NCBI GenBank assembly: GCA_036172245.1
Contig: JAYWIR010000024.1
Location: forward strand, 1-64,000
Reading direction: 5' to 3'
Length of the DNA stretch: 64,000 nucleotides
Origin: Raillietiella orientalis
Lineage: Eukaryota
In this document: positions 1 through 31,697 of the stretch, in pieces
Position numbering within the stretch: the first letter of the stretch is position 1
Layout: each line of letters starts with the position of its first letter
Program-made: the position numbers and the translations under genes
The notes under the pieces: model-generated
The model's database searches: none
What the model was told of the DNA's origin: nothing
The model's input: the letters and a program-made list of their open reading frames with translations, nothing else

Positions 1-837
1 GGTTTTCCTTGGTGTTTCCATCTGGTGCACGCCGCACCATGCCTCTTCATGCTCGCAGCGGGTAAGAGAGGTCAACCATGCTCAAGACGGTGGCTTGAAG
101 GTTGTCTCCTGGTCCGCAGTGCGGCCTGCAGATCCGCTGGCATCTCGACAGGCGTGCAGAGCAACAACCAGAGTCAAGAGGGCATCCGACAGTCAGCTTA
201 GTGCCCTTCCGGTACTCCGGCCTTCCCTCACGGGCCTAGCAGCTGCTCGCGTCAGCTTAGTGGCTGATTGACCGTTCTCAACAAGTGGAGCACGCGTGGC
301 TTGCCGTACAGAGGAACGCTTCTTCATTGTATAGAACGATGTAAGCCGGTGTCTTCAAGATGCATCCGAAGATTCTTCGTGGCTGAAGGCAATCTGCCGG
401 GAGTCAGATTCGTCTGACACATGCCCGCACTCCTATCAGACTCCAGTTGCATCCTCCCCTCACCTTGCCGAGTGGTCTCCAAGAGCCTCCTGCACATTCC
501 GTTCTACGATCGGCCAAAGCGGACGCACGCGTTTGGCATGAGAGAGAGCATGTGAGAGAGCATTCCCTGCTCGATGATCCTCTGCGGCGAGCGAGGGAGT
601 TCCAGCACTTCCCACGTCCCGTCGCAGCTGCTACACCTCAGAGAATAACAAGCCTTCTGTTGGCCAACGAAGCCTGGAGGCTCAGGTGGAACAGTAGCGG
701 AGCAGGGCGAAGAGAATGCGATGCAACGAGGAACGCGCGTCAGGAAAAGTTCGCACTGGAGAAGTGCACGCGGTCGCGTAGGCGGGGAGCTGCCTTGCGA
801 AAGTGTCACAAAAAGTGCCTTGTAGGGAAAGGCCTCC

Positions 838-956
838 GTTCACGGCCACACCACGCTGAAAGCACCGTCTCTCGTTCGATCGGCGAAGTTAAGCAGCGTC
901 GGGCCCGATCAGTACTTGGATGGGCGACCGCCTGGGAACCCCGGGTGCCGTGGACC
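838..956 (+). rRNA. 5S rRNA gene (eukaryotic type), copy 1
   Basis: GTTCACGGCCACACCACGCTGAAAGCACC...GAAGTTAAGCAG (box A)...AGTACTTGGATGGG (box C)...GTGCCGTGGACC. It is 119 nt, the 5' and 3' ends pair, and a TTTTT Pol III terminator follows. Confidence 0.95.
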
Positions 957-2817: not shown

Positions 2818-2948
2818 CGATCGAACGAGAGGCGGTGCCGCCACTACGGGCCACCGCCATGCTTTCCATTGGCGAAGTGAAGCAACTCCACACCAGGTCA
2901 GCTACTTGGATGGACGACGACCTCCTGGGAACCCCACGTGCTGCGAAC
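2818..2948 (+). pseudogene. Scrambled, degenerate 5S rRNA pseudogene
   Basis: ggcgaagtgaagca...cagctacttggatgg...cctgggaacccc...gtgctgcgaac is on the + strand, followed by a T-tract. The internal 5S block gcaccgcctctcgttcgatcg lies inverted at 2818-2838. Confidence 0.7.
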
Positions 2949-5344: not shown

Positions 5345-8265
5345 TTTGGGGTGAATTTATTTTCTCTTTCACACTACAATCTCATGCATACAAATTGCAC
5401 AAAGATTGCACTTCCTATCGCTGGGGTTCACTTGAAGTCTGCTTCTTGGGGTCTCTGGAAAGTTCGCTGCATTAATCAGCTGGGTGTCGTTTGGGCCTGG
5501 GTTCCTCCTCCAATCCTTTTCAGGATGTTTCGGTAGTTCCAGACCTGCACTGGTCCGCAGTTTTTAATGCCAATCTCTTTCTGGATGAGCCCTATCAGGT
5601 TTCCTAGGGGAGATATTGTGGTCCTCGTGGTCTTCATCTTCCACCACCTTACAATAATGGCGGTGATGAAAACGGCGATCGTCACTCTTACCATAGGGTT
5701 ATAGCGGGAAACCGTTCCAGTTCTTTGGAACTTCTCTGCCCAAACCTCCATCGTCGAGGAGCTGGACAGCCCGATGGCCCTTTTCAGAGTAGTCCACTAG
5801 GCTTGCAGGGGGGGGAAGTCAGTACGTGACGTCTTGTATCTATTCCACCACACTTCCTGCAGATTTCTTCGTCTCCTATTCCCGTGAAGTGCTTCATCCT
5901 GGAACCACTCATGATACCTCCATGGAAGAACCTGAGGAGATTATCCTGAGTTTCCGGTGCTAAATCACTCCTCTAGAGCACCGTCTCAATCGCCAGTGGA
6001 TTAAATCCACTACTAGCGTAGCGGTCGGCGGCATCTTGGAGGGCGCTGAAGTCTTCTTCTCCTAATAGCTGGCGAATGTTCCTCTTCGTTACTCTGGACC
6101 ATGCGAAGTTGCGATGATTCTTCCACACTTCGCGTGTCCTGAATGCGAAGCTGCCAGAAATCCTTTCGACATAACGCAGCACCCGAGAATGATGCAGGTG
6201 TCGTCGTCGTGCCCATGATTCATTATCACGAAAAGTCACTCCGGTCCTCTGGTTTATCCTGGTCCTCGTGTCATCCTGCACGGGGAGCATCCACGGGATA
6301 ACCTGGATGGATTCCTCCTGCCAAAGTTCCTTGCTCTTCGGGATCATTTTCAAGAAATGTTTCTTGACGTGTTCCTGTTTCCTTCGACACGACGGGTCGA
6401 TGGTGGACCATTCACCAACTCTGCCGACCAGCGCAGTCATCAGGCCTCTCGAGTTGTTCCGCAACAGCGAGTACGCCCTGTGCGTGGCGTACGGCCAGTC
6501 GTCTCAGTTGGAATACATTTCCAGGATTTGTCGCATGTCCATGACGTCCACGGCGTATGCAGACGACTTCATACCGGATCCTCCTTCTTCCTTAGGACGA
6601 CACAGTGGCTTAAGGCGTACTCTCGGTCGACATTTTCCCCAGTGGGTTCTCCGCTAAAGCTTTTCCATTTCGCGCTCGGTGTTCTGGGATGTTGTAGAGA
6701 AGGCCGCTCCAAAGAGTATCTTTGAAAGGAGAACTCCGTTCCAAAGATTGACCCTCTTCTTCATATTGAAGTCCGAGCGGCTGTACTTCGCTCCTTGCTC
6801 TGCTGTTCTCCCCAGGACTTCCTTCCACAGTAATTGGGGTGCCGAAGCATCTCCGATGTGGACACTCAGGTACGTAATTCGATCCACCGTACGGAATCCT
6901 CTCCTCTTGAGTGTAGAGAGGTCCAGGATTCCGACGGGCAAAAGCTGGCTCTTCTGGGCGTTGATCTTCAAGCCCAATCCTTCCCTCATAAGCTCCACCA
7001 CATGCAGAAATCCTTGCTGGTCTCTCTCCTTTTTCAAGAAGAAGAGAAGGTCGTCTGCGTAGGCCAGATGGGTGAACCTTTCAATGTCCACTTTGATTCC
7101 TTGGAGGTACTCAGTTCTCTCGATGAACGACGAGACGGCCTCCATATAGATAACGAACAGCATCGGACTTACAGCATCGCCCTGATGGCCTTCGCGTTCC
7201 ATGCGAATAGCTGCTGTCGTTTCCCCGTTTATCTTGATGTGGAAATGTTGTTGTTCGAGTATCATCTTCACGAAGTTGCCGAAGTATTCCAGGAGGTCCA
7301 GTCTTTCTAGAATCTTCAGCAGCATCTCATGGTCCACCGTATCGAAAGCCTTCTCCGTGTCAGTGAAGCCTAGCACCAAGTTCTCGCCGATATATCGGCT
7401 GAGTCCAATGGTAGCTTGGGCACACTTGACCTTGGCCGACATGTGACGTCCAGGCACCGCACATTTTTGGACCGGAGAGATCAGCCTCGGCAAGACCTTG
7501 CCTAGGCGGTTGGCCCGTATGTTCGCCAATTACTTGGCATCGAAGTTGAGGATCGAGATTGGCCTCCATTGGGTGACCTGCGTGAGTTCGCCTCCTCTTG
7601 GCAACAATCTCATCCTACTCTCATAGAAGGATTGCAGTAGTCGTCCGTCTTCCATGATGCGTAGCGTCAGCTGGTAGAACAAATGCTTGTAGGCATGCAG
7701 GTACCGTTGATAGTGTGAGATGGGAACATTATCAGGACCCTGTGCCACATCCTTGCGAAGATCCTTAAACGTAGCTTTCGCTTTTTTTCATCGACTCTTT
7801 TCTCCAGATGTTTCAGGAAGCTATTTTCGTAAAATTTGCACAGATGTCTGCGTTGGAAGTGTTCCACGTAATGCCTCTGGAAGGCTTCAGTGATGTCTTC
7901 CGACCAGTGGCTGGCACGACCATCGTAATGGATACAGAACATATCTGTTGCCAGATTCCTCTTCTCCAACACTTCCACTTCTCCCTTGATGTTTAGGAAG
8001 ACGTACCGACTCTCGTACTCTTGCCAGTGTTTCGAGAGGGAGCGATCTTGAATGTTCAGCTCCCGGTACGCTTATTGCCTCAGTCTCCTGTCTCCGAACT
8101 ACATGTTGCAGAGGAGGTGGACACGGTGTTTCATGCTATCCCAGTCGGCGATTCTGCTGATGGTGGTCGACTGCAGCACCGCCTTCACGAGCTCTTGGTG
8201 ATAGGGCAGCGTTTCAAACCAGGAGCGCCGCCTTGGGTTTTTCACCCCGGTGAGCCGGGGCTTTT
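5345..8265 (-). mobile_element. Mirror copy of Tx1/L1-like element A
   Basis: ORFs 7530..7748, 6654..7529, 5973..6464 and 5476..5751 on the minus strand. Confidence 0.9.
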
Positions 8266-8316
8266 ATTATTAAAATTTTTCGAAATACACAAAAAAAATT
8301 TCATAATACAGTCATG

Positions 8317-10242
8317 ATTTGTTTTTTTTTTTTTTTGTTGTTGTTGTTGTTCTTGTTTTTCAGTCGGGACATATGGCCCGAATGTCTTGAGGCACTTGTC
8401 CTTACCGACCCGAAGGACGATAAGGTCCTCTACACTGGTGAAGGGGCGAAGAAAACCGAAAATAAACAAAAACAAGAAAACGCCTGGGGGGGCAATGTTC
8501 TTTGGGAGGGGGAGGGAAGGGAAGGAATCCCGGTACGCCGTGAGGAGGCCTCTGCATCCGGTCACGGATGCCTGTAAGTGTTTTCCAAGTCGGCGCCAAC
8601 GGCAGGCCTTCTCCAAGGAGATGGTTGCCCAGTGGATGGCATTCCGACTGGCATGTCCTCTCCTTGACGCGGTCCACTTGTCCAGTATTCCGCGTACGCA
8701 ACAGAGCACTGCTACACACCCGGAAGCTGGCAAGGCGTCCCGCATCAGGAGTCGAAAAATGTTCTTCGGGTCGCGCCGCGGAATGTTCAAGATCGACGAG
8801 TGTCGGTTCCACATATCGCGAAGGGCAACGCACTCAATGATCAAGTGAGCAAAGGTTTCTCTTTCCCCACAGTCTGGGCAACTAGCATCCACACTCCCTT
8901 GTGTCCAGTGAGACAAGCGCGCTCTGCTTAACAGTCCCCAATGGAGCAGAAGCAACGCCGTCTCCTGCCACTGCAGGGGAAGGGTGCCGTTATTCCACGA
9001 CACCGGGGGCCACTTTACCTCCTCCGGAGGTACTTCGAGCAGCGCGCCCCAGCGTGAAAGTCCATTTGGCGGGACACTCGGGGTACTAGCTTCCGCTAGT
9101 TCCCGGGACGTCCACGCCTTCAATAATTTTTTCCTGCCTCCGATGAGGCAGGACACTTCCCACGATGCCTCCTGCTGGCTGTCCCGAACTTCCCTAAGGG
9201 AGGGCAGCACTGGGGCAAGGGGGGTAAAGGAGGCCCACAGAAGCTTCCATGGGTTGCTGACGATCTCCTGCAGTGGCTGACCAGCGTACCTGCCTCTACG
9301 GAGGCAGGAGAAGTCCTCATCGCTGGAGCCGTTGATTTTAGCCCATGCGGAAACGGATTCCTGGAGCCAGGTAATCCAGTCCGCTGGGATGCAGGAGATC
9401 CACGGATTGTCTCTCAACAGGGAAACCAATTCCCGCAGCTGAAAACCACAGTGGTTAAGGCTGCGGTCGTTGGCTACTAGGATTGAGGTCAATCCATGGC
9501 AGCCGGTTGCCCTCTGAGCCAGGATTCGTGAAGGTGCACACCAGGGTGCGGTCCAGTACTTTGCCACAAATGCAAGTTTGCGGAATCGGAGCTGTCGCTT
9601 CATGCGCTCCAGCGTCAGGAGACCAAGTCCACCGTCCCTGCGTGGAGCGCACAAGTCTTTAAGACGGACGAGGGGCCTCCGATTGCCCCAGAGGGCTTTT
9701 CTAATGAGGCCCCTCGTCCTTTGTCGAATTCGGGGAGGTATGGGGCATACAAAAAGTAGGGGGCGGAGGAGGGGGGCCGCAAAAGCGTTCCACACCGCCA
9801 CCCGTTCCTGCAAGTAAAACTTGCCGTCCCGAAACGGGCCGATCGCCAACTCCACTTTTGGAGACGGTCGGACCAGGCTTCTGCAGCGCAGAAGTCCCCC
9901 AACGGAACGCCCAGGTACTTGAAGTACCCGCCCGTGGGGATCCCCAAGCGGATCCAGCCTGACCGTCCTGCCCGCAACGAGTCCGGAGAAATGATTGACG
10001 ACTTCGCCCTGTTTACCTCGAAGCCCGTCCCACGGTTTGTCTTGGTGGGGTCCGTAAACATTCACCAGAAACTGGTGAAAAAATTTGCGGACCAGAACAA
10101 ACCGTAAGGCGATGACTCTTTCAGGTACGGGACAGAAGGTTTCCAGAATGGTGGCGGCAAGCTCGTTTTTGATAAAGATCGCCACCTTGATATTGATCGA
10201 AGTCATCAGCCCTAGCGAAGGATAGGCCTCAGGAGAGGCCAC
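8317..10242 (-). mobile_element. Mirror copy of Tx1/L1-like element B
   Basis: ORFs 8242..10242- and 9615..10061-. Confidence 0.85.
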
Positions 10243-10571
10243 CGTGATAATAATAGGCGGTAACTTTTTCGACGTCCTTCAGGCGATGTTCGGAAACCAT
10301 GCTGGTGCGGAGGGAGGTGGGGCGAGCGCCGCGACCTTGAGAACTGATCCTCTTTTCGCAGCTTCCCCCTCTTTTTTTCCCTCTCTTTGTGCCGCACAAG
10401 TCGAGCGGCAGTTCTTCACCACGCGTGACATCCGAGTGCGAACGCCTCCCAGGTGTCACCCTCTCCTAGAAATCGGATCACTTCCTAAGAGGGGCTCCCT
10501 GCCCCTTCGCCTACATACATCCCACCGTCTCACTCGCTGAACCCACCAACGATCACGGTATTCACAGACTG

Positions 10572-11385
10572 TCAAAGCTCATACAGAGGCATCCAGGAGA
10601 TACCGAGAAGCTGCCAGAGAAGATCATCTTGAAGAGTGCGGCCATCGATGCTCTTGCCAACTTTCCTTGCCGCATTGCTGCTCTCCCTTCGAGAACATAT
10701 GGGCAGCAACCTGTCCGTGAAATAGGGAGTCAGTGCCGAAATCTCCAGAAGAAGAGAATGACTAGTTGAATGGACGACGGGCCAGCTAACGGACGCTGCG
10801 ACCCCGAGTGCCCACCCTCGACGACTCTTTAGCGAGACACTGGGAATTCTGGTGAAAGATCTGCAGACATCCCGGTGCTCTTGGACACCTGCATCTTCCC
10901 CTTGAAGTGGCAGGAGTCGGTGCAAATGCTGCTGCACTGGGGCCTCCTGTGCAACGCCCGCCGGCATTACTGGACACGAAAGTGTGTGGAAGCGAACTGT
11001 GCAATGTGCGGGGAGCTGGAATCTTTTCCTCACCGGCTAGTGGACTGTTTCCTTTGGTCCCATTCGGACCAAACACGCTAGCCTTGGAAGCCTCGACATC
11101 AACTCCAGAAATGATTGACTCTTTTTGCGAGACGCCCTGAAGCCAGTCGTAGCCCTTGCAGCACTTTGCTGCCTCCGCAGGGTCGTGGATCGGGAAACAA
11201 TGCGAACTCAACCGCTTGGCTCCTCGCTTTCTGTGGATAGCGGTCAGACCTTGACAGCAATATCCAGCAACACCTTGCCGCCATCCTTCAAAGGATGCAG
11301 AGGACCACCTTCTGCTGACAATGATCAGTTTTTGCACCCCACCCCTTCAAATTCTTTTCTATTTATTTTGTTTCTTTAACTTTTT
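10572..11385 (+). mobile_element. 3' fragment of a B-family LINE (element C); mirror at ~37162-37975 on the minus strand
   Basis: FPLKWQESVQMLLHWGLLCNARRHYW...CAMCGELESFPHRLVDC aligns with LPLQWQETALLLLHWGLLSRARLSHW...CPDCGERETFAHLIIEC of element B. C-rich then T-rich tail. Confidence 0.8.
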
Positions 11386-12165
11386 CATTGCACCTTTCTT
11401 ACGTCAGCTTCCTTAACGGACCTAGCAAAGACGCTGCACAATATGGGGCGAGCGAAGAGCTGTCTCTCACGAATCCAAGATCTCCAGCAATCGACAACAT
11501 GTCTGGCGGGATGGCGGGTTTCAACAGGTACTTGCGTCCGGGACATTCTTGGAGCAGACTGGAGCGTAGAAGACTGTTGGATGGATCGCAGGCAGACTAA
11601 CGAGAAAGGTCCGAGGAGATGCGCATCTTCCAGCACTAGAAACAGCTACCCGTCTTCCCACAGGCCCTTAGCGCACTTCTTGTCCACTTTTGTACGTTCG
11701 AACTAGGATCATCGCTGCCCACTCCGTGCACCAGAATCAACCCTTTCGACCTGCCCGCTTGCAACACCCAGAAGCACGGAGACACCTTCATAACTTCGGC
11801 GAAATGATGTCGCCCACTGCCAACAACATGAGCGGACTTTGAACCAGGCACTTGAACGCTCTAAAGCGCGACTGACTGGCTGAGGCAGGTTTGCGGAAGG
11901 ATCACTTGACAGCGGCGAAATAAAAGTTTTTCTGCAACGTCGCGGGCAGGAACAACCTCCTTGAAGGCTAGATGGTGCGTAAGTTGGTGGATGTTACCAG
12001 TACACGTGCTGCGGCAACAAGACTCCTTCAGTGAAGTAAACTTTTGAGTCTAGTCCCCGAAGACCATGCACTCCCTCCCCTGTGTCTGGATACTTTTGTG
12101 TCCCCGCTCTCTTGGAAACAGGTTATGTTGCTCTTTCTGCATTGGAGATTACAGTGAAATGAGCG

Positions 12166-12950
12166 TTGGCACCGTCTTTCCTCAAGATGTTACTTCGCTC
12201 ACAAACGATTCCAAAGAAATGGGAAGCGATAACGGCGCAGGCACCCATCAATAAAGAAGACAAGAAACCACAGTTTATCATCGAACGAAAGGATTTTCGT
12301 ATCTATTCAAAGTTGGAATCGGAAGATCCTTCAGTTATTTCAGAATGTTCGGCGGGTGATTGGGTCACTTGCGAGCTGTGTTTAGAAGCCTTGCATTTTA
12401 GACACTCATGGAAGAGGGAACGACAAATCCAAAACACATTCCGTTCAAACATTCCTTCATGAGAGCACAGCAACAAATGAGATGTAGGGCTTCACCTAGA
12501 GGCTTCTTCGTGAAAACAGCCAGCCTGGACCAAGAGGAATCCCAGAAAATGGTTCATTTCCACTCCCTTGCTGCTTCCCTGTCTCCTCCTGCAAACGAAA
12601 ACGGATGAGAAATGGCGGAAGCACTTGAAATGGTGCTTCGAACGGGAACGCTGCGCCAGCCACAGCGAGAAGTGGTGGGAAACGAAATTTCCAGGAATGC
12701 CGTTGCGACCATCAAAGGTTCGCTTCACGGATGAACTCGGTTCCTAAGAGAGCTCAAAGTCCGAGTTGCACTTCAAGTTGACCGGGAGAACGACACCACT
12801 CCCGTTCCAGGAGGACCGGTTGAACTTTCGGGTGTTACACGAATCGAGAAAAGGCCTCATGAAAGATGCTGTTCTTTGCTTCTCCCACGCGGTTGTTCCG
12901 GCTCAATAGGTGCCGTTCTTGGAGAATTTGCTGCGCTTCCTTTGAAAGTG
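12166..12950 (+). mobile_element. Possible degenerate DNA transposase (BED-finger/hAT-like); mirror at ~35597-36381
   Basis: WVTCELC...RH and a later CASH (CxxH) motif. The match is weak and broken. Confidence 0.25.
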
Positions 12951-13086
12951 ATCGAACGTAACTTAACGTACGATGTTTACTGCCAACGAGGCTGACTTCT
13001 CTGCTAATGAGAACAGAAGAGAAAATTTCGCCGACCAGCTGTCCCATAAGGAGCGCGAATGCGACCTTCAAGAGGGCATGACATTT

Positions 13087-13190
13087 TCCATCTCCCTGCT
13101 TGTGATGCAATACATGCACGTATACATGAACACGTATGTATGAGCATACATATAGAGAAAGATACATGTGTGCACATATGCGTGTGTGAA
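13087..13190. repeat. Degenerate alternating purine-pyrimidine (TA/CA/TG) low-complexity tract; mirror at ~35357-35460
   Basis: atacatgcacgtatacatgaacacgtatgtatgagcatacatat...gtgtgcacatatgcgtgtgtg. Confidence 0.55.
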
Positions 13191-13254
13191 AGTTTCCTTG
13201 TTTATTGTGAATCGATGATAAACGTATTTGTTAATCCTTTTGAGAACGTTTTTT

Positions 13255-13600
13255 CACATTTCCCTGAAAATGGTTTGCCGATCAGAGTGATGGACGCCGC
13301 TCCTGCTCATCCTCCGAATTTCGAGTAACATTCGGTGGGTGAATCTATTTTCATAAAGATAAAGTTTTCGCTGGCCAATAGCACTTCCCTCACACAGCCC
13401 ATGGACCAGCAAATCATTTCGAACTTGAACACAGCGCACACTAAGGCCACGTTTTGAAAATGCTTTGAAATCACCCATGACACAGAACTGACTCTCAAAG
13501 AATTTCTGCGAAGGAGCTTCACAGCATCCTTCACTGCTTAGCGATCATCGACAAGGCATGGAAAGAATGGAATTTTTTGCTTGGAAAAACCTCTGTCCAG
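13255..13600 (+). mobile_element. Tigger/pogo (DDE_1) transposase remnant; mirror at ~34947-35292 on the minus strand
   Basis: ENGLPIRVMDAAPAHPP...IKFSLANSTSLTQPMDQQIISN...KCFEITHDTELTLKEF matches the pogo/Tigger pattern DNAP.HP...P.NTTS.IQPMDQ.VI. Confidence 0.75.
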
Positions 13601-14361
13601 GTTGCATTTCAGTCGGAGAAATAGAAAGCTGTGAAGAACAGTCTGTTGTAAATGAAATTGTGTCTTTGGGTAGAGCTGTGGGATTCGAAGTGAGGATGCA
13701 CAGGAGATGATCACATTGCCGGACTCTGCACAGAAGAACTTCAACATCTTCACGTTCAACAAGAAGAAGAAGTGGGAGAAGGAATTTTGTTGGAAGAGAA
13801 GGGCGTCAAGGGATGCATTTCCCATTCTGACCTCGAAACTCTGTTCTCCGTTTGGGCCAGAGCACAAGCCATCGAGGAAAAATGGCACCCTGATAAGACG
13901 GTGGTTACCAGGAGTATCAACTTATTTGATCACAATCAGTTAGGCTATTTCGAAAACATCGAAAAAAGCCGTCAGACCAAACAACACGAGAGAAATTCCC
14001 CTCGGGAGAAAAAAAGAAAACCAACATCCTCCACCGTAGCTAAGAATCAGGAAGGAGTCGCTTAGCAACAACATATCTTCATCTTTGCGATTTTCATAGG
14101 GAAAACTGATTTTTCATTCTTCCTTTGAGGTTGCCATAATGAAAACGAATAAAATAAACGAGAAAACATTTCGTTTCATTTTTCGAGGCTTCTGAACGTT
14201 CTATGTTATTCACGTCCAAATTAATAAAATGGGTGCAGTAAAGAGACCGTTTTCTTGGAATTTTTTCGGGTGTGGGAGCGAATTATTTCACCTTTTATTA
14301 TTCCTTACGTAAAATCTCGATTCGGAAATCAAACAGGTTTCCGGAACGAGTTAAATGCAGT

Positions 14362-14470
14362 CATAATTTAACGGAAATTGGAAGAATTCTCGTTTGGAGA
14401 TTACATTATGGAATAATGTAATTGCACCTTGAAATGTAATGATGGAGAAAACGGAGGTGCAAAATGGCAA
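14362..14470 (+). pseudogene. Possible remnant of the 50S ribosomal protein L9 C-terminus
   Basis: Frameshifted HNLTEIG...RLHYG..VIAP*NVMMEK loosely resembles the L9 C-terminus. rplI lies directly upstream of dnaB in Firmicutes and Mollicutes. Confidence 0.35.
14453..14458 (+). promoter_or_regulatory. Relict Shine-Dalgarno site (GGAGGT) of dnaB
   Basis: acGGAGGTgcaaaATG: 5 nt upstream of the dnaB ATG. Confidence 0.7.
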
Positions 14471-15328
14471 TGAAAGTGCAAAAGCTTTATGTTTTAGCTG
14501 AAGCTGAACAAACTATTTTGGCGCTTGCAGCACATTCAATGTCAGCAGCAGAGGAAATTTTTTCCAATCTCAACTGATGGAGATATGAATTATTTCACAG
14601 TAATGAATTATGGAGTCATCTTGAAAGCTTTTTGCGTGACTTGTTTGCCAGCAAAGTTGCAATTGGTGTATCAACCTGAAGTAATTGCATGTTGAAAAAT
14701 AAAGAGTTCAATAGAATGGGAAGAATTGAATGTCCAACTTACTTATTTCAATCATCTACAAGAGATGCTCGCTTGGAGATTGATTTGGATGATGATTTGA
14801 TATAAAAATAGTAAAAATCACGAAGATTCAAAGGATGAATTGAAGAAATCAGTAAAGAAATCATTTCGAACCAATCAATTGCAGAGGTTGCAAGTAAAGC
14901 TGAAAAATTGGGTGATACTCTCAATCGGAAAGATAATATATTCAAAAAATCACTTGCTGACGTGGACAAAGTATCAAACCAAATTTGAATGTCAGGAAAC
15001 TCAGGCAGTGTTAATACTGGCAGTGCAGGTGGATTTGATGATGATTTAGATGGAATCACTTCTGGTCATCAAAAGGGTGAACGTATTATTCGAAACGCTC
15101 GTCCATCAATGGGGGAAACAGATTTAGCATTAAAGTTTGCTTTTGATTGTTCTGGGAAATGATCTAATGCTGTAGGGATTTTTTCAGTTCAGAGCCAAAC
15201 CAAAAAAACCAATTCAAAGAACGATAGGGGCAACTTCCACTGTTGACTGAACCAAGGTTCAACGTCAAATAGAATTGCAAAATAAAAACAAAAAAGTGAA
15301 CAGCTACAAAAATAAAAGCAACCTCAAA
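14464..15328 (+). pseudogene. dnaB: Bacterial replicative helicase pseudogene (N-terminal domain to just past Walker A), truncated
   Basis: Hand translation from ATG 14464: MAMKVQKLYVLAEAEQTILALAAHS...DLDGITSGHQKGERIIRNARPSMGETDLAL...AVGIFS. The canonical DnaB pattern is LD.IT.G.Q.GDLIILAARPSMGKT...V.IFS. In-frame TAA/TAG/TAA at 14803-14814, several TGA, frameshifts, and Walker A K replaced by E. Confidence 0.88.
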
Positions 15329-16639
15329 ATGAGAATGTTGGATTTAATTGAAATGAAAAAGAATGGACAAGAACTTTCAGAGGAAGAAATAAAATATATT
15401 ATCGACGGATATACAAACGGTGAAATTCCAGACTATCAAATGTCAGCATTTTTGATGGCTGTTTATTTTCAATCCATGTCAGTCAAGGAAATCTCCTATT
15501 TAACACATGCAATGATTGCATCCGGTGAAACATATGATTTATCAAGTATTGAAGGATTTAAGGCAGATAAGCATTCATCTGGTGGTGTTGGTGATAAAGT
15601 TAGTTTAATCTATGCACCATTAGTAGCTAGTTTTGGCTTAAAGGTTACTAAAATGTCTGGCCGTGGTTTAGGCCACACTGGAGGAACAGTTGATAAATTA
15701 GAAAGCTTCAAAGGTTTTCAAGTAGAAATTTCATTTGAAGAATTCAAACGGATTATTAATAAAGTGAATATGTCAATTATGGCTCAATCAAGCAACATTG
15801 TTCCAGCAGACAAAAAGATTTATGCTCTAAGAAATGCAAGTGCAACTGTGAATTCAATTCCATTGATGGCTGCAAGTATCATGTGTAAGAAAATTGCCAC
15901 AGGTAGTGAAGGAATTGTTTTGGATGTTAAATGTGGAAAGGGGGCATTTATGAAATCAGTCCCTGAAGCAAAACAACTGGCACAGATCATGGTTGGAATT
16001 GGGAAACATTTTGATAAAAAAATTGCAGCTCAAATTACTAATATGGATCAACCGTTGGGTCGGGCAATTGGAAACGCAATTGAAATCTATGAAGTTGTGA
16101 AAACTTTACAGGGGAATGGATCTGAAGATTTGCATAGTATTGTGTGTGAATCAGCAGCACTAAGTTTGTGTCAGAGTGAAAAATATAATGATTTGGATGA
16201 AGCATTTAAGGCATGTGAAGCTAAATTGAAAACAAAGGAACCACTGGAATATTTTATGAACTTTATCAAAGAGCAAGGTGGAGATTTATCTTTATTGGAT
16301 CATGTGGATAATCTTGATTTAATGTTAAATACTGAAAAGAAAATTGAAATTCAAGCTAAAACAACAGGGTACGTTGAAATAGTTGATACGAATGAACTCG
16401 GATTACTAGCAGTTGGTTTAGGTGCGGGCAGAAACACAAAAGAAGAAGCAATTGATCATATGGCAGGAATTTATCTAAATAAAAAGACCGGTGAAAAAGT
16501 GGAAGCCGGCGAAGTCGTTATGACATTATATACCAATCGTGATATTGGAGATATGCTTTATGAATGGGCTGAAAAAACCTTCCAGATTTCATCGAGTCCA
16601 CCAAAACCCGTGAAATTAGTATACGAAATCATTCAATAG
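15329..16639 (+). CDS. pdp: Pyrimidine-nucleoside phosphorylase / thymidine phosphorylase, bacterial type, intact (436 aa from ATG 15329)
   Basis: N-terminus MRMLDLIEMKKNGQELSEEEI...IPDYQMSAFLMAVYF. Family motifs DKHSSGGVGDK, KMSGRGLGHTGGTVDKLES, YALR, ASIMCKK, LDVKCGKGAFMK, MDQPLGRAIGNA and LGAGR. No stops or introns; AT-rich relative to the flanks. Confidence 0.95.
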   Translation: MRMLDLIEMKKNGQELSEEEIKYIIDGYTNGEIPDYQMSAFLMAVYFQSMSVKEISYLTHAMIASGETYDLSSIEGFKADKHSSGGVGDKVSLIYAPLVASFGLKVTKMSGRGLGHTGGTVDKLESFKGFQVEISFEEFKRIINKVNMSIMAQSSNIVPADKKIYALRNASATVNSIPLMAASIMCKKIATGSEGIVLDVKCGKGAFMKSVPEAKQLAQIMVGIGKHFDKKIAAQITNMDQPLGRAIGNAIEIYEVVKTLQGNGSEDLHSIVCESAALSLCQSEKYNDLDEAFKACEAKLKTKEPLEYFMNFIKEQGGDLSLLDHVDNLDLMLNTEKKIEIQAKTTGYVEIVDTNELGLLAVGLGAGRNTKEEAIDHMAGIYLNKKTGEKVEAGEVVMTLYTNRDIGDMLYEWAEKTFQISSSPPKPVKLVYEIIQ

Positions 16640-16849
16640 AATCCATAGCTGCTTCAAATCAAAATCGAAGGAGACGAAAATTATGTTCTCTGCCAAGAGA
16701 AGAATTCCCTGCAATAATAGCTTTGTTTTCTCTTTCGAACATTATTTGTGTTTTGATTGTATGTTTTTTCTTTTTCCTTGAATAATATTGCTTTTGACTT
16801 TTGGGGTGCTTTTCTTTGGCGTTTCAGTAACATCAAATAGAGGATTTTT

Positions 16850-16851
<2 letters not shown>

Positions 16852-16888
<37 letters not shown>

Positions 16889-18692
16889 GTTCGAACCGTC
16901 ATTTCGGGTAGAGGAGAGACTTCCTGAGCCTCCATCTTCCGTGCCTGGAACAACGGATTCCCTGAATGGATTCACGGGAACGACGCTTCAGCAAACGAAT
17001 GGAAAAATGCAAAGTGTTTGACCACCCCGAAGACATGAACTCGATTTCTGATGCAGAAGGGCTCTGGACTATCGTTCACACTTTTTTCTCTGTCCACTTG
17101 GGGCACTCTTCACTCTTCTTCAGGGTGCTCCCATCCTCCACTCCCTGGCTTTCGTATGGTGAGAAAAGACTGTCTGGATTCTCCGGCTGGCTGGATGTTT
17201 TCCTTACGATGTGGACGGCATAGATCTCACTCGAGAACCGCGTAGGCACCGGCTGCCGTCCGGTGCCTCCGTTCCACCAGCTTCTTCTTTGGCATTCCCG
17301 GATCTTGTAATACTTCTTCATTACCAGGATAATACCACGCCTTCAGAGAGCCAACGATGAACGCGTGTACTTTGCTTTCATTTCCACCTTTTCCCAGCTG
17401 TACTGCTACGTCCTTGTGTTTTCCTTCCTGCATCCTCCTGTCTGTGCTGAACGCCTCTTTTCCATTCTCATGTGGACAGCAGACGTCTAGCACACATGTT
17501 TAGTTTCCTCTTTTCATGACCCGATCCGGTTCTAAGGTGGAAGTTGCTCTCTGGTACTCTCTGGTTTCTTTACACAAGACTCCACTTTGCTTCATGCACT
17601 GCGGCCTTTCTGATAATCTCCTGAGCCGCGTCGTGGCGTGCCACGGACAAAGGAACCGGTCCCTTGCATCTATTCAGTATGTGGGACAACGTTCTGTTTT
17701 CTGTCCAGCAACGCACTTCCACTCTTGTTTCTGGAATTCGACGAAATCCGTTCAAAATTCGTTAAGCATTGTGGTGAGCATCTTTGCTTAAATGGAGATA
17801 GGTCTATTGCAGATGCTGCCTGGCTTCTTCTCCGCAGTACCGTCCAGGGAAGTCCTTGGTCTGATCTGTATTTCCAACTCCTTTTCAAAATGCTCTTTTA
17901 CCGTCTCAAGCTCTAACTTGCAAGTTTGGTCCTGCTGACCTAGAATGGCTCGAACTGCTCTTCCGTTCATATTGTAGAGTTCCTGGATGGACGATCTCCT
18001 CAGCGAGGCCCTTCTCCATCCAGGATCTTCTGGAGATGGATTCTTTCTTTGTTGAATTTCATGGAATAATTCGGTCTTTGCGTCCATTTTTCTTTCCTGC
18101 TTGGTTTCGCATATCTCTTATATTGCTGCTGTTTTGCTCGTGTTTTCTGGTGATGGCTGTTCTCACTGGCTCTCCTGAGCGACCGTGGCTAGGGGAAGCT
18201 GTCCCAGGAGGAGAGGGCAATTATTATACCGTACTTTGCAGTCGATGGGAGCAGGTTGTCTTTGCTTCTTTTCCGTGTCTTCCTTTAGTGCATGTTCGAT
18301 CAGAGGGTCTACAATTGCTTCCACATTGCCAAAAAGCCCTCCTTCCTCCTCTTCTTCTAGTTGGGGCATCGCGGGTGGTATTCCAACTGAAGTGCTCTCT
18401 TCCCTCTCATCTTCTGGCTTGTCCGCTGCTTTCTTGTCTTTCTTCTTGACCCATCCATTAATGAGTATATTAATGGACGGGGCTTCCTCCGTGGCCAGTC
18501 TCTTTCCGTTGGCAGGTTGCGGCGTCTCCGTTCGTTGCCGTCGGACCCGACATGGTTTCGCAGGGCTTTTCTTGTGGAAGAGGTCATGCTGCACTCCGGT
18601 CTGGTACAGAACAGTCTCGTCGAGAGTTGTACCGTGACCACGCGGGTAAGTGAGGAAGATTCTTCATCGCAGACGTGTTGCGAAATCTTACT
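16852..18692 (-). mobile_element. Mirror copy of the NeSL/R2-like element
   Basis: T34 at 16852-16885; ORFs 17227..17493-, 17570..17755-, 17788..18087- and 18357..18641-. Confidence 0.8.
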
Positions 18693-21600
18693 TGTTGTTT
18701 TTCCACTTGGAAACTGAAGCGCAATTTCCTTGGATTCTTTGAGGGAATTCTTTGAAACTTATGTATGCTCATTTGAGGGAAGATCGATACTTAATTCGGA
18801 TGTATGCTTATCTCATCGCGAATGTGGTTTCTACTTTTGAATGGATTAGGTGGAAGGACGCTACCGTTAAAGAGATTTGAGGAAACAAGAAGTAGTGAAG
18901 TGAGGATGTGAAAAGCAATTCAGCAAAAGTGCACTGCACCATTTTCTTACTTTTGGACGACAGTCTTCTGATGTGTGGTGTAAGGTAACGTCTTCTCGGT
19001 CTCTGAAGAAACTCCGGCGGTACCTCGATTGCGTTGCTGCAGCATAAGGACGTCATATCCATTTGGTAGCGTGGGTGAAAGACTGCAATTCGTGGAGCAG
19101 TTTCCTTTCATATTTTTGATATGATGTATTTTAGAGAAACACTGACAGTGAGCTTTTTCCCACTCTCAAGTACTCTGCAAACTGGAACAACACATTGTGT
19201 GTCGAAAATAACATGCCCCTGGAACTTCACCTGAAGCTCGTGGAGCACGTTGTCTGTGACACAGAATGAAGAACGCATCTGCATGGTTTAGACGTTAGTC
19301 GCCGTGCAGCGGTGACCAAGAAGAAGAGAAAAAAGAATAACCATAAAATGGCAACGTAATACAACGGAAGAGTAGCGATTGCTGTCGAGAATTGCGACCT
19401 CGATGCTCAATTGCTTAGGTAGGCTTGCCGCATGGAAGATTTCTTCAACTAAGGATCCTGCCTGATTAGAAAGGAGATCGGTATAAAGCAAACGGTTTTT
19501 CACTTTGAGCTGGTGAGATACTTTTTCATCACGAAAGGATTGGGAAGATGGGAAATTTTTTAGTTACGAACGATTGTGAAACGTGTTGATAGTGATGCGA
19601 CGGGTTTGCGTGGTGACCATGGTATCGTATTGACCGAGACCAATGTTATTTTGCTCAGCGCTGAATTCAAGGGAGGGTGCGATGGAGAATGGGAGAACCT
19701 GAGGGAAGGATGGAGCCTGTGCAGCCCCCAAGGGAGGAAGGAGAGTTGCTAGGTAAGGGAAATTATGAACTGCCTGGTCGTAATCAGATTCGATAGAAAT
19801 TGGGTCTTCTAGTTACGTTGCGAATGATATGCACGTGTTTCGTTCTGAAGGTAGGAGAGTGGGTAGGAAAAGAATAGGGCTGAATATTGTTTGTGTGCTC
19901 TTGAAAAGGAAGGGCGTTTCTTCTATGAGCGCGAGGCGGGTCAGGGAAGAGCTGGCAATCATGGATTTGCACTGTCGACTCTGCAGCCGAGAAAATTTGT
20001 GCTTAGGCGTGGATGCTTTAGCAGAGGACGAGTCCGAACTGGTCTGGCATTCTATGTAGAGTATGGATGTGCAATCATTACGTCTGCACTTCTGTAGAAA
20101 GATTAGTAGTGAGTGAAACTTGGATAGAAGACAGTTCCTTGAGGGAGAAATGGGATGGTCAACTCATTATCTAAAGCAGCAGAGTTTTCGAATTTCTTTC
20201 GTTCAATGAAGCTTAGCAGTAGGAGCATTGTCTAATAATTCGGTGATAATGGGTAAAAATCGGTTTGCTCCAAACAAGCGTGATTGATTGAACCACAATT
20301 TAGTTGGCATGCGAGAGATTTTTCTTCCGGTGTTGCGGATGCAGCACAGCGTTGATAGTGACTGATCGGAGCAATAGGCCGTGTGCCGCGAAACTGAGGA
20401 TGGTGCAGCGGAACGAACGAATGGTCCCATTTCGAATGAACGGTATTCGTTCCTCGGTCATTATTTTCATGTGTCGTGCGAGGTTGCTCGGAAAGAATTG
20501 CTGCTTATTGCTATATAGTGGAAATTTATTTGCACCCTATATGCCAGAAGGGTATGATCGTCGGTACAGGATGAGGAAGAGGAATCCGTACGGAACACCT
20601 GTGAAGTGTCCGTATCAAAAGGAAGATGGAGGCAGTGAAGTGAGAATTTGAAATAGGGAGTCGGATAAGGCAAGCAATCGGGTGAAGACCATGGAATGTT
20701 GCGTCAACAAAAAGAGGTGATGTAATGGAGAATTTAAGCAGGAAAGATTCTCGTGAATAGGAGACAAATGGGGATGGTAATGATTAGGGAAGTCGACGAA
20801 AAAGGAACACCTTTTTTGAATAAAAGGAAACACGGACTTTTCGCCACAGTATTTGTTCCCACGAGAAAAATTGTGTCGAGGTGGGGTGCTGCTAAGGTGT
20901 GTAGTGTGGTTTCATCAAGAGAGTTTGAGGAAAAGTTGAGTTGTGGGTGAATCTCACCTGGGAAGAAATTGGCAGAAGATGAAAACGAGTTAGAAGCTTT
21001 CTGAGAAAATAAATGCAATGATTGGAAATTGGAAAGTTTTTATTTTTGTGCAAAGGGTGCTCGGAAATCCATACTCTCGTTTCAATTCTTTCTTTTCCAC
21101 TCAACTTACCAATGTAGATACCCTGAAGAGTGTATGTTGAGTGCTGATTGCATGCGTAAACAGGTTGGAGAGAGGGGTATGAATGGTGCTTAAGAGAATG
21201 AAGGATGAATCATGGATGTGCATTGGTGAAGGAGGAATGGTTGGTGGATTGGTATTGCATGGATATTTTCATGTACATGCGGGTTCTGTTAGTGAAGTTG
21301 TAAGTTTGGATGGGAACTATGGCTGATTTTAGGGATATGCTTGAGAGGGATAGTGATGAGATTACTAGAGGTATTTGAGATTGTAACAATTTGGACATAT
21401 ATGCCAGGTAATGTGGTCACATGTGACTGATTCTCAGAGGGATATCCGTTGAATGAGGATGTTAAGGTTTCGAAAAGTAGAAGAAAAGACACAGGGTCAG
21501 GGTATGTAGATTGGTAAGTGATATGAACCTTGAATGCTTCAGCAAGCTTGCATTGAAAGTGAAAATAGAAGGATGTAAGGAAATGAGCAGATGGAAATAT

Positions 21601-23968
21601 TTATGGGACAAATGTGGATTGATTTTAGATAATGATGAAAAATAGGGCAATGAAGATGTTGATTGAAAGGGCATTTGAGGAGTCATCAAAGTTAATGCTA
21701 ATGGTTTTTGATTTCATTATAGTTGTAAATGCACAGAGGACCTTTATGTAGGGATAGTCAAAGTCCTGGGGACTAAGGTTTCTATAGGTGGATGGTGATG
21801 GATGTAGTAAGATGGAATATCTGTGGAGGGTGGATTGATGGAACATGGACAGTGAAGAGGAGATGGTGTTTACCATGAGCTTTCTGATTCTGTGAGCGGT
21901 ATTGAGGCAGACATATGTACAAAATGGGATGTAAAGAGCATGATTAGATGGCAGATGGCAAGTCTGGAAAAGAGAAGGACCTAAAGCCAACATGTGGGTA
22001 CTATGTGTGGAATAGAATCAGTTACTTGATTGTCAAAGTGTCGGTGTTCCCACTCGACAAGGTTTGTTTCTTAGCAGTCGTCTGTTCATGGTAGTCATTT
22101 AGGTTGTTGAAGTCAAAGGTTTCACTAGGATCGAGGTGAGTGAGCACAAATCTGTGCCGCATGCCGCAGAGCATTTTCGAAATAGAATTCCTCGTCTAGC
22201 TAAGGTGGTAGATTGTCGGATCCACAGACAGGGCATCGATCTGGATTCCAAGGAAGGGGCTAGCTCGTTAGTGCAATACGTCTTTCGACGCATTGACCAT
22301 GCGATTCGTGCTGGGAAGTGGTACGAGAAGAAAAGCAATGGCGGTGATCCATTTCGTATTGTAAGTGGATTGAATAATCAGTGTCCGTCTTTCTGAATAG
22401 GGGATGCAGTTGTGGCGGCAAAAAAACAAAAATTCTGTGGGCTACGATGTTGCAAAAAGAAATTCCAATGTGTTGCTCTAACGCCTATAGCGATGGCCGA
22501 TTGAGAACAGTATGAGCAAGGTGGCTCAGTTTCAAATTTAGAACAAAATCCCATTCCCACGGGAACAAAATCCCAATCCCATTCCCATTGGAAATCAACA
22601 CAAAACCGAGAAATGACGTTGATGACGAGATTCAAACTACTTTGACTCCTTAGGCTCCTTGGCGGACTTTGACTTACGGGATTCCCCGAAAAAAAAAAGA
22701 CAATCTGCCCGCGTCGGAGGCTTTGTGGTTAAGGCTTCCGCGCGTGGCACCATGCGTCGCGGGTTCGAATACTTCGGCAGATAACTGACGCCACTGCGTC
22801 GTTGGGTTCCGAGTTTCTCCTGCAAGATGGAGCTGGTTGGCCGAGACATTCGGGCATGGCCCTGGCGGTGGATAAAGCCCGGAGGCCTCCCGATGAAGGC
22901 CGGAACAATGGGAGTCGACCTTCGGGTCCTCCCAGGAATAAAGGAGTGGGGAGTTCCTCCTCCAGTCGTGCAACGGAGAGCGGACCCCCATCACCGGGGG
23001 ACCGCCTCCGGTTTCAAGATGTAGCAGGAGCCCTCACGGGCACCTCTCCAGTTGTTCAAAGGAGCGGACCCCCCCCCCCCGGTTGAGGGGTCCCTCCGAG
23101 TCGTCGCCTCTCCAGAAGAGTGCAAGGAAGCAAGCGAAAACATCCCCATTCGGGAAGCAGCAGCGCCCCTTCTGAGTTTCGGAAGCGTCCCTTCGGGGTT
23201 CTCTTCAGAGTAGTGAAAAGGAGCGGTTCCCTTGCAGGTTCCCTCCGGAGAAGAAAGTCCTACAAGAGGATCCTTTCCGGGTTCCCTTGGGAGAAGTTAA
23301 AATGGAGAGGACCACCCCACATTGCGGGGCGCGTCCCTCCGGAGAGAATGAGGAACGAGATTCCCTTCGGGGTTCCCCTTCGGAGACAACCAGGGTGGGA
23401 GGTGAGATCCCCCCGTCTGGGGGGGATCCCTCCCCAAGCGTGAGAGGAACGGACTCCGAGCCCTTCCTGGATTCAATAGGGCGGACCCCATCCCGGGGTG
23501 CCCCCTATCCTGAAGAATATTACACTGAAGAATTACACGCCCCCCCCTGCGGGTTGCCGCGGACAGGTGTGGAAACAAAACAGTGTGTTAATGTTTGAAA
23601 AGAGCCACGCGCGCCGCGAGGCACGCGACCGGCTCTGAGGTACTTAGCGAACCAAAAAAAAGAAAACTCTTAAAAAGAAAAAAAAAAAAAAAAGCTGGAA
23701 GGAAAACAGCGAAGACAGAAGAAAAAGAAGTACCCAAGGATTACCATCGTCCTAGGCCAATAGTAAGGATCTCCTCGTGGGGTCGCTACTGGCCTTATAA
23801 AAAAAAAAAAGACAAAAACAGGGGAATCTGCGGCACGTGGGATGGCAATCCCTCGTCAAGACGCGGCACTCCTTTACTTCCTCGAAGGACGTGTTTTTTG
23901 GGTGCTCCCTTTAATGGCGGTTTCAGGTGGTGTTTGTGTGGGTTTTGCGCGGCTGTTTGAGGGCAGAA

Positions 23969-25000
23969 ATGTCTGAGGACGCCGCCAGTACGGCGGGGGG
24001 GGGGGGATGGATGTGGGGACCATCTCCCCCACAGAAGCGTCCCCCACCCGGCGTGGGCTTGGAGCGCGCTGGTGGCGGCGCCTGCGCCGCCCACCGCAGA
24101 ACAGCGGGCGTGCCAGGCCGACAGATACAACTCGGCCCTGTTGTACAAGGTAAGTGGCCTGTACTCCCCCGCTATTGTGCGCTCGTTCGCGCTTGAATTC
24201 TCCCCCTCTCCTCGGGGAGTTTCAAGCGCCGAGAAGCGCTTGAAACTTCCCGAGGAGAGGTGCTTGACCTGTCCATTCGCAGCGGGGGGCAGCTCGCTGA
24301 GCTAAACTTCAGGACCGCAGAGATGGCTCAACAGCTTCTGCGCACGCCGGTGATCGTGATCGGTCAAAGGATCTTCCCGTTCACGGCGGACAACTCCATC
24401 GTTGTCCACTTCATCGGTATCACCATGAGAATGGCAAAGAACGCCGTTAGGGAGGAGCTAGAAAAGTGTCCACGAGGGACTGTCCACGCGCTGTGGGCTC
24501 GCCTCTTGTCGCCGATTGCGTGTTACCGGTTGGAACGTCAACGGGTTGCGCGACGACGGCGAGAGGCGAGACGTAGCTGCCATACTGCGAGACTTCGACC
24601 TGGCGCTCCTGCAAGATACGCACATTCTCAGAGTAGATGTCCAGGAAATCGAAAGGATCGCAGGAGGGCTTCTACTGTGGAGGAACGGGAGCGAAGAAGA
24701 CCACTCCTGCAGAGTGGCCTTTTTACTGAGGGATTCCCGGCAGTGTTCCAGTCCTACCTGCGCTCCTGCTGGCGTGACGCGTTAATAAATATTCGTTTCA
24801 GCGGCCGGCACTGTACGGCGTGCCAGTGCGCTGCGGCATCCGGCAGGGAGACAGCCTGAGCCCCTTGCTCTTCAGCATCTACTTCGAGTTGGTGCTGAGA
24901 GCATACAGGGAGACTTTGGCTACCCTGCCGAGCTTGCAATGTGTCGGCCTATGCCGACGATCTTCTGCTGCTGCTCCCCGGGTCCACCGCGGCGCGTGCG
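23969..25000 (+). mobile_element. Heavily deleted Tx1/L1-like element E in the palindrome 1 spacer (ORF1-like piece, endonuclease N-terminus, RT core)
   Basis: RVTGWNVNGLRD...LALLQDTH (APE endonuclease) followed within ~100 bp of the endonuclease fragment by GIRQGDSLSPLLF and SAYADDLLLLL (RT). Confidence 0.8.

Positions 25001-31695: not shown

Positions 31696-31697
<2 letters not shown>

Follow-up and report, generated by a model that had tools for sequence, protein, structure and literature searches.

Transfers from heritable symbionts into animals are exemplified by the Wolbachia inserts of insects and nematodes, functional bacteria-to-animal transfers being few and most of their known donors being Wolbachia and other Proteobacteria. 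Arthropods commonly harbour Mollicutes inside their cells or in the haemolymph, and these bacteria read TGA as tryptophan, so that most of their genes would be unreadable after transfer. Gene transfer from bacteria to eukaryotes is a known kind of event, and a Mollicute donor is an unusual one. The expression of bacterial genes in aphids is treated in one report (PMC2662799), and at the level of abstracts the literature yielded no account of a eukaryote carrying a Spiroplasma pdp. The locus described here lies in a 64,000-nucleotide stretch of DNA (the whole of it hereafter called the window) and resembles the symbiont-to-animal transfers in being a small rearranged bacterial fragment in apparently nuclear DNA, mostly decaying and with one gene intact, but it differs from those named in the TGA-reading Mollicute nature of its donor.

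The intact gene, pdp, is most readily compared with the bacterial Pdp/PyNP enzymes (EC 2.4.2.2), such as those of Geobacillus stearothermophilus (1BRW) and S. eriocheiris, with which its product shares the same three-domain layout. The KHS, KMSGRGLGHTGGT, YALR and S..K stretches are unchanged relative to 1BRW, whereas the gene, unlike those of bacterial PyNP, sits in eukaryote-like DNA and has its tryptophan codon as TGG instead of TGA. The eukaryotic TYMP proteins (2J0F, 1UOU) share the fold family and type of reaction of the window protein (E about 1e-70); however, bacterial PyNP is a much better match to it (E 1e-129) and it nests within Spiroplasma, which ruled out a vertically inherited TYMP. 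The neighbouring gene is a remnant of the replicative helicase gene dnaB, essential in bacteria. What it shares with DnaB is the N-terminal domain together with ~60 positions at the start of the ATPase domain, with 45–53% identity to Spiroplasma DnaB, but its sequence breaks off after about residue 265, it carries stops and frameshifts and it has lost the Walker A lysine.

Anatomy and donor of the island

Both genes lie in an AT-rich island of Spiroplasma origin on the plus strand (14075..16890, ends approximate), which was delimited by its GC content of 0.28–0.41 against 0.44–0.55 outside. An earlier note, made from the letters of this DNA, had described an AT-rich segment of ~2.3 kb starting at 14362; the AT-rich island does exist, but its real size is ~2.8 kb, and the proposed start falls upstream of the dnaB homology, which begins at 14443. 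Within the island, DNA matches to Spiroplasma were restricted to 14469-15258 and 15328-16641, and no Spiroplasma-like DNA was detected in the flanks at 1-14100 and 16860-31700, neither stretch being matched by any of four genomes. The claim that the bacterial segment lies amid eukaryotic 5S genes and transposons was upheld by six 5S rRNA matches in the GC-rich DNA around the island and by 3 of the 13 ORFs of the flanks, whose Pfam matches were all to RVT_1 and zf-RVT. A 678-aa LINE ORF in the flank had one protein match only, in JGI, with 49% identity. These LINE and 5S rRNA surroundings suggest that the host would probably be an animal. Neither tRNA genes nor tandem repeats were found in the analysed DNA. 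The right edge of the island is occupied by a poly-T run (16851..16886, no strand assigned), which on the minus strand would read as a poly-A tail.

The dnaB pseudogene (14443..15262, plus strand) covers DnaB residues ~1–265 of 455 with the 3′ end missing (tblastn E 6e-54), and its region is 66–67% identical at the DNA level to three Spiroplasma genomes. The alignment resolved it as the N-terminal domain followed by the beginning of the ATPase domain; the Pfam DnaB_C match spanned profile positions 7-62 of 255 only, and NCBIfam TIGR00665 gave 41 bits where its cut-off is 385. Its frame is interrupted by three in-frame stops within TAA, (AAA), TAG, TAA (14803..14814, plus strand) and by 3–5 frameshifting indels near 14563, 14629, 14792/14818 and 15200, and the Walker A lysine codon (15115..15117, plus strand) became GAA, turning GKT into GET by comparison with the DnaB of Spiroplasma sp. 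DGKH1 (ARPSMGKTALAL). The stops, frameshifts and Walker A K>E change had all been reported in the earlier note and were all recovered; moreover, since none of the stops is TGA, the frame is shifted and the Walker A motif lacks its lysine, the gene is broken under the Mollicute code 4 as well, a point absent from that note. The remnant is a non-functional DnaB in which an open frame, a complete ATPase domain and an intact Walker A motif are all missing.

In each of the five relatives searched, one dnaB match was found, and in the four with both matches (G001, G031, G073 and G009) dnaB and pdp are separated by 150–190 kb, while the 31 pdp loci examined in relatives all lacked DnaB homology beside pdp. 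The A-rich stretch that links the truncated dnaB to the start of pdp (15263..15328, plus strand) had no Spiroplasma match and, in view of this separation, marks a rearrangement. The single dnaB match per relative, the lack of adjacency at the 31 pdp loci and the decay under code 4 strengthened the argument, already put forward, that such a decayed dnaB does not fit a contaminant. A search with a 57-aa query for a dnaB-fragment ORF from a locus like that of the protein P0001 returned no candidate, which carries no weight either way.

A remnant of the rplI (L9) 3′ end was considered upstream of dnaB (14362..14457, plus strand), where HNLTEIG resembles by eye the HNLTSIG of DGKH1 L9 and the position is co-linear with the Spiroplasma gene order rplI-dnaB. 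This candidate is weak, as its local DNA alignment score of 26 was not significant, shuffled sequences scoring 22.7 on average and up to 33; BLASTP and Pfam returned no match for the segment.

By contrast with dnaB, pdp (pyrimidine-nucleoside phosphorylase; 15329..16639, plus strand) comprises 436 codons plus TAG with no internal stop in the standard code. The ORF at 15275-16639 is open under table 11, and the ATG at 15329 yields 436 aa, which together with the family assignments substantiated the uninterrupted pdp described earlier. Three Pfam domains were identified, all above the gathering score: PF02885 (Glycos_trans_3N, 5-66), PF00591 (Glycos_transf_3, 79-301) and PF07831 (PYNP_C, 348-420). 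The protein reached 550 bits for NCBIfam TIGR02644 (cut-off 409) and 484 for NF004490 (cut-off 269), and 537.8 against 559 for the narrower equivalog NF004747, below its cut-off. The motifs listed in the earlier note (KHS, KMSGRGLGHTGGT, PLVASFGLKV and KKIATGS..LDVKCG) are all present in the translation. Aligned over its full length with the PyNP 1BRW (E 3.6e-129), the protein has identical residues at the phosphate and pyrimidine sites (K-H-S; K-x-S-GRGLGHTGG-T; Y..R; S...K), the catalytic residues and the residue numbers being those of the 1BRW literature. The enzyme is predicted to be a homodimer of the cytosol, a pyrimidine-nucleoside phosphorylase that would use phosphate to split uridine, thymidine or deoxyuridine and release the base and (deoxy)ribose-1-phosphate.

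The donor clade is Spiroplasma. The window Pdp is 77% identical to the proteins of Spiroplasma eriocheiris and Spiroplasma sp. DGKH1 and 81% identical to P0001. In a tree of 32 rows it was recovered inside Spiroplasma as sister to P0001 (SH-aLRT 99), both of them near the S. eriocheiris/sp. DGKH1 group, and the best matches of the dnaB fragment were the same Spiroplasma. These placements agree with the Mollicutes-like (Spiroplasma/Mycoplasma) origin suspected from the motifs.

Decay of dnaB and constraint on pdp

The two genes of the island differ in their substitution patterns. Relative to G031, codon-position distances of the window pdp were 0.188/0.106/0.466, close to the 0.207/0.113/0.412 of a bacterial pair (G009-G031), whereas those of dnaB were 0.273/0.242/0.480 for the window and 0.171/0.078/0.388 for G009, the second positions thus standing at 0.106 in pdp versus 0.242 in dnaB. 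Similarly, NG86 estimates gave a dN of 0.156 and an omega of 0.09 for pdp, and a dN of 0.328 and an omega of 0.30 for dnaB. Moreover, the window Pdp has changed at 3 of the 101 columns invariant across 30 bacterial Pdp (K9M, P128K and T171S). This shows that pdp has the pattern of a functional gene and dnaB a relaxed one. A dN/dS near 1 in pdp was looked for against donor relatives and an omega of 0.09 was obtained instead, although the dS of pdp to the nearest genome, 1.7, is saturated, so that dN/dS cannot isolate the time spent in the host and most of the measured constraint was exerted in bacteria.

The persistence of the open frame provided a further line of evidence. For a neutral pdp accumulating substitutions alone, at 0.10 substitutions per site the frame remained open with a probability of 0.002, and at 0.15 it did so in 0 of 4000 cases. 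The 3–5 frameshifts in 790 nt of dnaB, scaled to pdp, predicted 5–8, with a probability of none between 0.007 and 0.00025; had pdp decayed as dnaB did, the chance of an open frame would be ~1e-5 or less. Codon-position distances, omega, invariant columns and open-frame probabilities all agree with the contrast between a decayed dnaB and a retained pdp that the earlier note had drawn. Selective retention of pdp is supported by these sequence comparisons, and the purifying selection may have acted in the host. The decay of dnaB probably post-dates the transfer, given the one dnaB match per relative, the 150–190 kb separation and the lack of DnaB homology at the 31 pdp loci, and part of it could be older.

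The explanation that best accounts for these observations, with a probability of roughly 0.6 for the whole, is that a Spiroplasma fragment integrated into a eukaryote, where pdp was kept, dnaB decayed and the locus was duplicated. A fragment of the chromosome of a Spiroplasma lineage sister to P0001, and close to S. eriocheiris and sp. DGKH1, would have entered the repeat-rich nuclear DNA of its host. The insert would join regions distant in the donor, namely the 5′ ~58% of dnaB (possibly with the rplI tail) and the whole pdp. The helicase fragment, presumably useless from the start, would have decayed, while purifying selection would have kept pdp, and the locus would later have been duplicated within a large inverted repeat. 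Host expression of pdp and activity of its enzyme are predictions of this explanation.

A recent integration, in which the donor Spiroplasma already carried a decaying, rearranged partial dnaB beside a working pdp, and in which pdp owes its intact frame solely to selection in the bacterium up to the transfer and has no role in the host, is an unlikely history, though the likeliest of the alternatives. The composition of pdp is fully Spiroplasma-like, with a GC3 of 0.254 against 0.253 in DGKH1 and no shift towards host composition; the bacterial history dominates the pairwise path (dS 1.7); and pdp pseudogenes are known in Spiroplasma relatives themselves (G061, G043 and G067). A mutation-spectrum test (W>S versus S>W), aimed at a host-like bias in the decay of dnaB, did not separate host from bacterial decay: the window dnaB gave 81 W>S and 28 S>W changes and an equilibrium GC of 0.54 by a method biased by conditioning on conserved sites, while the functional controls stood at 0.46–0.66 and two bacterial pdp pseudogenes at 0.46 and 0.11. 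However, such a history would have to be reconciled with the single dnaB match in each of five relatives, with the 31 pdp loci devoid of DnaB homology and with the rarity of tryptophan TGG in the family. Moreover, the GC content of the dnaB fragment (0.359) exceeds that of all five functional orthologues (0.268–0.332), an unexpected direction for an AT-biased Mollicute, although the bacterial pseudogenes compared with functional relatives differed by +0.007, −0.010 and −0.038, so that one of the three members of this weak control (n=3) rose slightly too.

The inverted repeat and the evidence for integration

In this assembly, a second copy of the island (31662..34472, minus strand) is identical to the first apart from the length of the poly-T run, which is 5 T longer, and it holds a second pdp (31908-33218) and a second dnaB (33285-34104), both on the minus strand and with coordinates obtained by mirroring. 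Comparison of the arms revealed that the two copies are carried by an imperfect palindrome (1..51258, no strand assigned), in which 1-5170 pairs with 51258-46090 at 99.03% identity and 5324-23498 with 43221-25015 at 99.19%, around a spacer at 23499-25014 and with ~2.9 kb of extra DNA at 43222-46089. The arms differ by 98 substitutions, which are clustered and include 56 transitions, and the island junctions are identical in both arms. Neither the large palindrome nor the second island copy had been mentioned in the earlier note.

Contigs of the DNA run X1 (share 0.12) matched the island and its flanks at 99.6–100% identity, with a word depth of 2–4.2, similar for island and flanks and low for both. 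Integration into eukaryotic DNA is suggested by one assembly and by these low-depth contigs, none of those listed bridging either junction. Run X1 may be the sample that was assembled.

An assembly artefact, in which a host contig took in misjoined reads of an infecting Spiroplasma and a fold-back or a haplotype mis-join gave rise to the inverted repeat, is improbable. The near-perfect palindromic shape of the window is one that long-read artefacts can yield, two haplotypes could have been joined in the assembly to form it, and among the X1 contigs listed no piece bridges a junction. Nevertheless, the bacterial piece is just ~2.8 kb with host-like DNA on both sides, and a free-living contaminant would not have a dead essential gene fused to pdp. 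In addition, the arms are unlike a fold-back read in their 2.9 kb insertion, their 1.5 kb spacer and those clustered substitutions, and the X1 depth is similar for island and flank pieces. Finally, an old genuine insert whose pdp is also neutral junk, open by luck, has no specific support and serves as the null; it is scarcely credible at the level of decay of dnaB, with probabilities of an open frame of 0.002 or less (substitutions) and 0.007 or less (indels), the lower second-position distance of pdp and its few changed invariant columns.

The tryptophan codon of pdp and the genetic code

The sole tryptophan codon of the window pdp, codon 413 (16565..16567, plus strand), is TGG, versus TGA in 17 of the 17 Spiroplasma relatives with tryptophan at this position. 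As neither TGA, TAA nor TAG occurs inside the 436 codons, the gene is readable by the standard code, and because its tryptophan codon is not the Mollicute TGA, a full 436-aa Pdp is possible on a eukaryotic ribosome. The gene would have had a single TGA to lose, at the codon that is now TGG, while the neighbouring essential gene rotted, and the locus would thereby offer a clear case in nature of the genetic code filtering gene transfer.

Taken jointly with the duplication, the codon allows a tentative and more specific reading, in which pdp was repaired from TGA to TGG after the transfer and the host runs a Spiroplasma-type enzyme from two palindromic copies. It is proposed that TGA at codon 413 acted as a premature stop removing the last 24 residues until the change to TGG. 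The host would then gain an enzyme of nucleoside salvage and catabolism acting on metabolites that Spiroplasma must take from it. To our knowledge, Mollicute symbionts and pathogens are without de novo pyrimidine synthesis, and a host Pdp may control the nucleoside pool that they need.

The TGG could also have been the state of the donor already. Among 30 bacterial pdp ORF stretches, three TGG codons were counted in all, and 29 of the 30 contained 1–6 TGA codons. The residue of P0001 at the position of codon 413 is arginine, which indicates that this codon was already changing in the lineage; under the post-transfer repair, this arginine, one step from TGA, could represent a second independent repair in another host.

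The island and its two genes

The bacterial island proposed in the earlier note at 14362-16690 corresponded to a real AT-rich patch, although its limits were somewhat wider (~14075-16890). The 5S and transposon setting also proposed was found in the flanks (44-58% GC), which presented six 5S rRNA matches and LINE-type reverse-transcriptase ORFs (RVT_1, zf-RVT). A DNA search against four Spiroplasma genomes revealed no Spiroplasma-like DNA in 1-14100 and 16860-31700.

The only long ORF of the region (table 11) was pdp, at 15275-16639 on the plus strand, encoding 436 aa counted from the ATG at 15329. All three nucleoside phosphorylase family domains were matched (PF02885, PF00591 and PF07831; Pfam), and the protein reached 550 bits against the NCBIfam model TIGR02644 (pyrimidine-nucleoside phosphorylase; cut-off 409), falling just below the cut-off of the narrower equivalog NF004747 (537.8 vs 559). 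Moreover, it aligned end to end with Geobacillus PyNP of solved structure (1BRW; E 3.6e-129), with the KHS, KMSGRGLGHTGGT, YALR and S..K stretches being the same in both. The uninterrupted frame and intact motifs read earlier were confirmed.

Upstream of pdp, the fragment at 14443-15262 presented homology to DnaB residues ~1-265 of 455; its ATPase domain broke off after ~60 positions, all beyond being missing. Since Mollicutes read TGA as tryptophan, it was translated again under code 4. The dead dnaB of the earlier note remained broken, with in-frame stops (TAA, TAG, TAA) at 14803-14814, frameshifting indels near 14563 (+1), 14629 (+2), 14792/14818 (+5/+1) and 15200 (+1), and GET in place of GKT in the Walker A, in addition to in-frame indels (+9, -6, +3).

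Donor lineage and genetic code

The Mollicutes-like donor first suggested was traced to Spiroplasma by the Pdp phylogeny and by the dnaB fragment, which shared 66-67% DNA identity with its best genomes, the same ones as for pdp. S. eriocheiris and Spiroplasma sp. DGKH1 were the best named Pdp relatives (77% each), and the closest of all was the Logan protein P0001 (81%). In an ML tree of 32 rows, P0001 and the window Pdp paired as sister sequences (SH-aLRT 99) within Spiroplasma, close to the group of the Spiroplasma-family genomes G073, G031 and G001, and the two had 7 identical changes in common at positions that did not vary among 17 close relatives.

In these three genomes and in a fourth one, G009, dnaB and pdp were 150-190 kb apart, and DnaB homology was found at none of the 31 pdp loci of 30 relatives, indicating that the A-rich joint of 66 nt (15263-15328) marks a rearrangement specific to this locus. 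In DGKH1, pdp was placed between a plsC-like and an scpA-like ORF (named from translations).

The sole Trp codon of pdp, number 413 (16565-16567), was TGG. In this column, the 17 Spiroplasma relatives with Trp all used TGA, whereas P0001 presented Arg; among 30 bacterial ORF stretches, TGG totalled only 3 and 29 carried 1-6 TGA. With a single Trp codon, one change at most was needed for standard-code reading, and pdp has that change. Bacterium-to-eukaryote transfer is of a known kind; the unusual features here are a donor from the Mollicutes and recoding at a single codon, and no prior report of a Spiroplasma pdp transfer was found among the literature listings and abstracts searched.

Selection on pdp and the decay of dnaB

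The reading with the best support is a transfer from Spiroplasma in which pdp was selectively retained, with a probability of about 0.6. Relative to G031, DNA identity was 74.7% (window) and 76.1% (G009) for pdp, and 64.8% and 77.3% for dnaB. The p-distances at codon positions 1/2/3 were 0.188/0.106/0.466 (window) and 0.207/0.113/0.412 (G009) for pdp, and 0.273/0.242/0.480 and 0.171/0.078/0.388 for dnaB, with NG86 dN of 0.156 and 0.182 for pdp, and 0.328 and 0.138 for dnaB. The dN/dS check put forward in the earlier note gave, with dS of the window pdp saturated relative to the nearest genome, omega values of 0.09 for pdp and 0.30 for dnaB (G009, 0.19 and 0.16). Both genes had similar rates between actual Spiroplasma genomes; in the window, pdp followed a functional-gene pattern and dnaB a relaxed one. 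By our estimate from these values, the excess in dnaB would amount to some 0.12-0.2 substitutions per site under neutrality.

Only 3 of the 101 columns without variation among 30 bacterial Pdp sequences were changed in the window (K9M, P128K, T171S). Under dnaB-like drift, 0.10 substitutions per site would leave pdp free of a premature stop with a probability of 0.002 (0/4000 with 0.15), and the probability of escaping a frameshift was 0.007 to 0.00025. These figures, together with the distances, indicate purifying selection on pdp all through dnaB decay, and an ORF left open by chance is scarcely credible. The enzyme is dispensable in some bacterial lineages, since three of the genomes sampled from the Spiroplasma family carried pdp as a pseudogene (L122-L124; G061:C1:150031-151344, with 12 TAA and 1 TAG stops, G043:C1:149103-150149 and G067:C1:1363642-1364081).

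A recent insert that inherited this pattern from the donor is unlikely. dnaB is essential, it gave a single match per genome in each of 5 relatives searched, and upstream of the fragment lay a weak, possible remnant of the rplI 3' end, co-linear with the order in the bacterial chromosome; therefore, the fragment was most likely derived from the functional dnaB of the donor and lost its function upon transfer. Composition was less one-sided: the GC of the fragment (0.359), above all 5 functional orthologues (0.268-0.332), was counted for decay in the host, and the lack of compositional drift in pdp (GC3 0.254 vs 0.253) and the saturated dS against it or as neutral. Equilibrium GC (polarised W>S vs S>W), 0.54 for the window dnaB compared with 0.46-0.66 in functional genes and with 0.46 and 0.11 in two bacterial pdp pseudogenes, did not separate decay in the host from decay in a bacterium. 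We infer that dnaB decayed, and pdp was retained, in the host.

Palindrome, reads and surroundings

The first 51,258 nt (1-51258) form a large imperfect palindrome, overlooked in the earlier note, with inner arms 5324-23498 and 43221-25015 (99.19% identical), outer arms 1-5170 and 51258-46090 (99.03%), a 1.5 kb spacer (23499-25014) and ~2.9 kb of extra DNA in one arm (43222-46089). Besides the spacer and the extra DNA, 98 substitutions separate the arms, with clusters around 5.3-6 kb and 22-23.5 kb. The arms provide a second island copy at ~31662-34472 on the minus strand, the same as the first but for five more T in the poly-T. Given these differences, the palindrome resembles a genuine inverted duplication, or a pair of haplotypes, more than it does a fold-back read, and may be such a duplication or a haplotype mis-join.

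An assembly artefact is improbable. Low-depth contigs of the one DNA sequencing run found, X1, which may be the assembly's own sample, matched the flanks (11508-11658, 12535-12688, 17764-17961) and the island (15936-16181, 16563-16713, 16716-16838) at 99.6-100% identity and similar depth (2-4.2), with no junction-bridging piece among the X1 matches listed.

The right edge of the island carries a 36-nt poly-T (16851-16886; 41 nt in the other arm, 31662-31700), which on the minus strand looks like a retroelement poly-A tail abutting the insert. The ~120 nt after it (16910-17026) matched only a diverged X1 contig, differing at 16 letters, and may thus belong to a dispersed repeat. In the spacer, LINE-like endonuclease (..NVNGLR..LLQDTH..) and RT (..IRQGDSLSPLLF..) motifs were seen by eye at 24530-24720 and 24800-24900, supporting an animal-type retrotransposon setting. 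The 19000-22000 segment and its mirror (26000-29000) were markedly asymmetric between strands, the plus strand being G/T-rich (GC skew reaching 0.50; GC ~0.39-0.46), with no tandem repeat call and no family match. A second repeat set (48709-57592) comprised 48709-52415, inverted relative to 57592-53900 (98.3%), and 1-2551, direct relative to 55054-57592 (97.3%). The 5S rRNA genes were located in these repeat units in both orientations, and two copies had weak scores, of 41 bits (54608-54728) and 75.5 bits (55881-55996).
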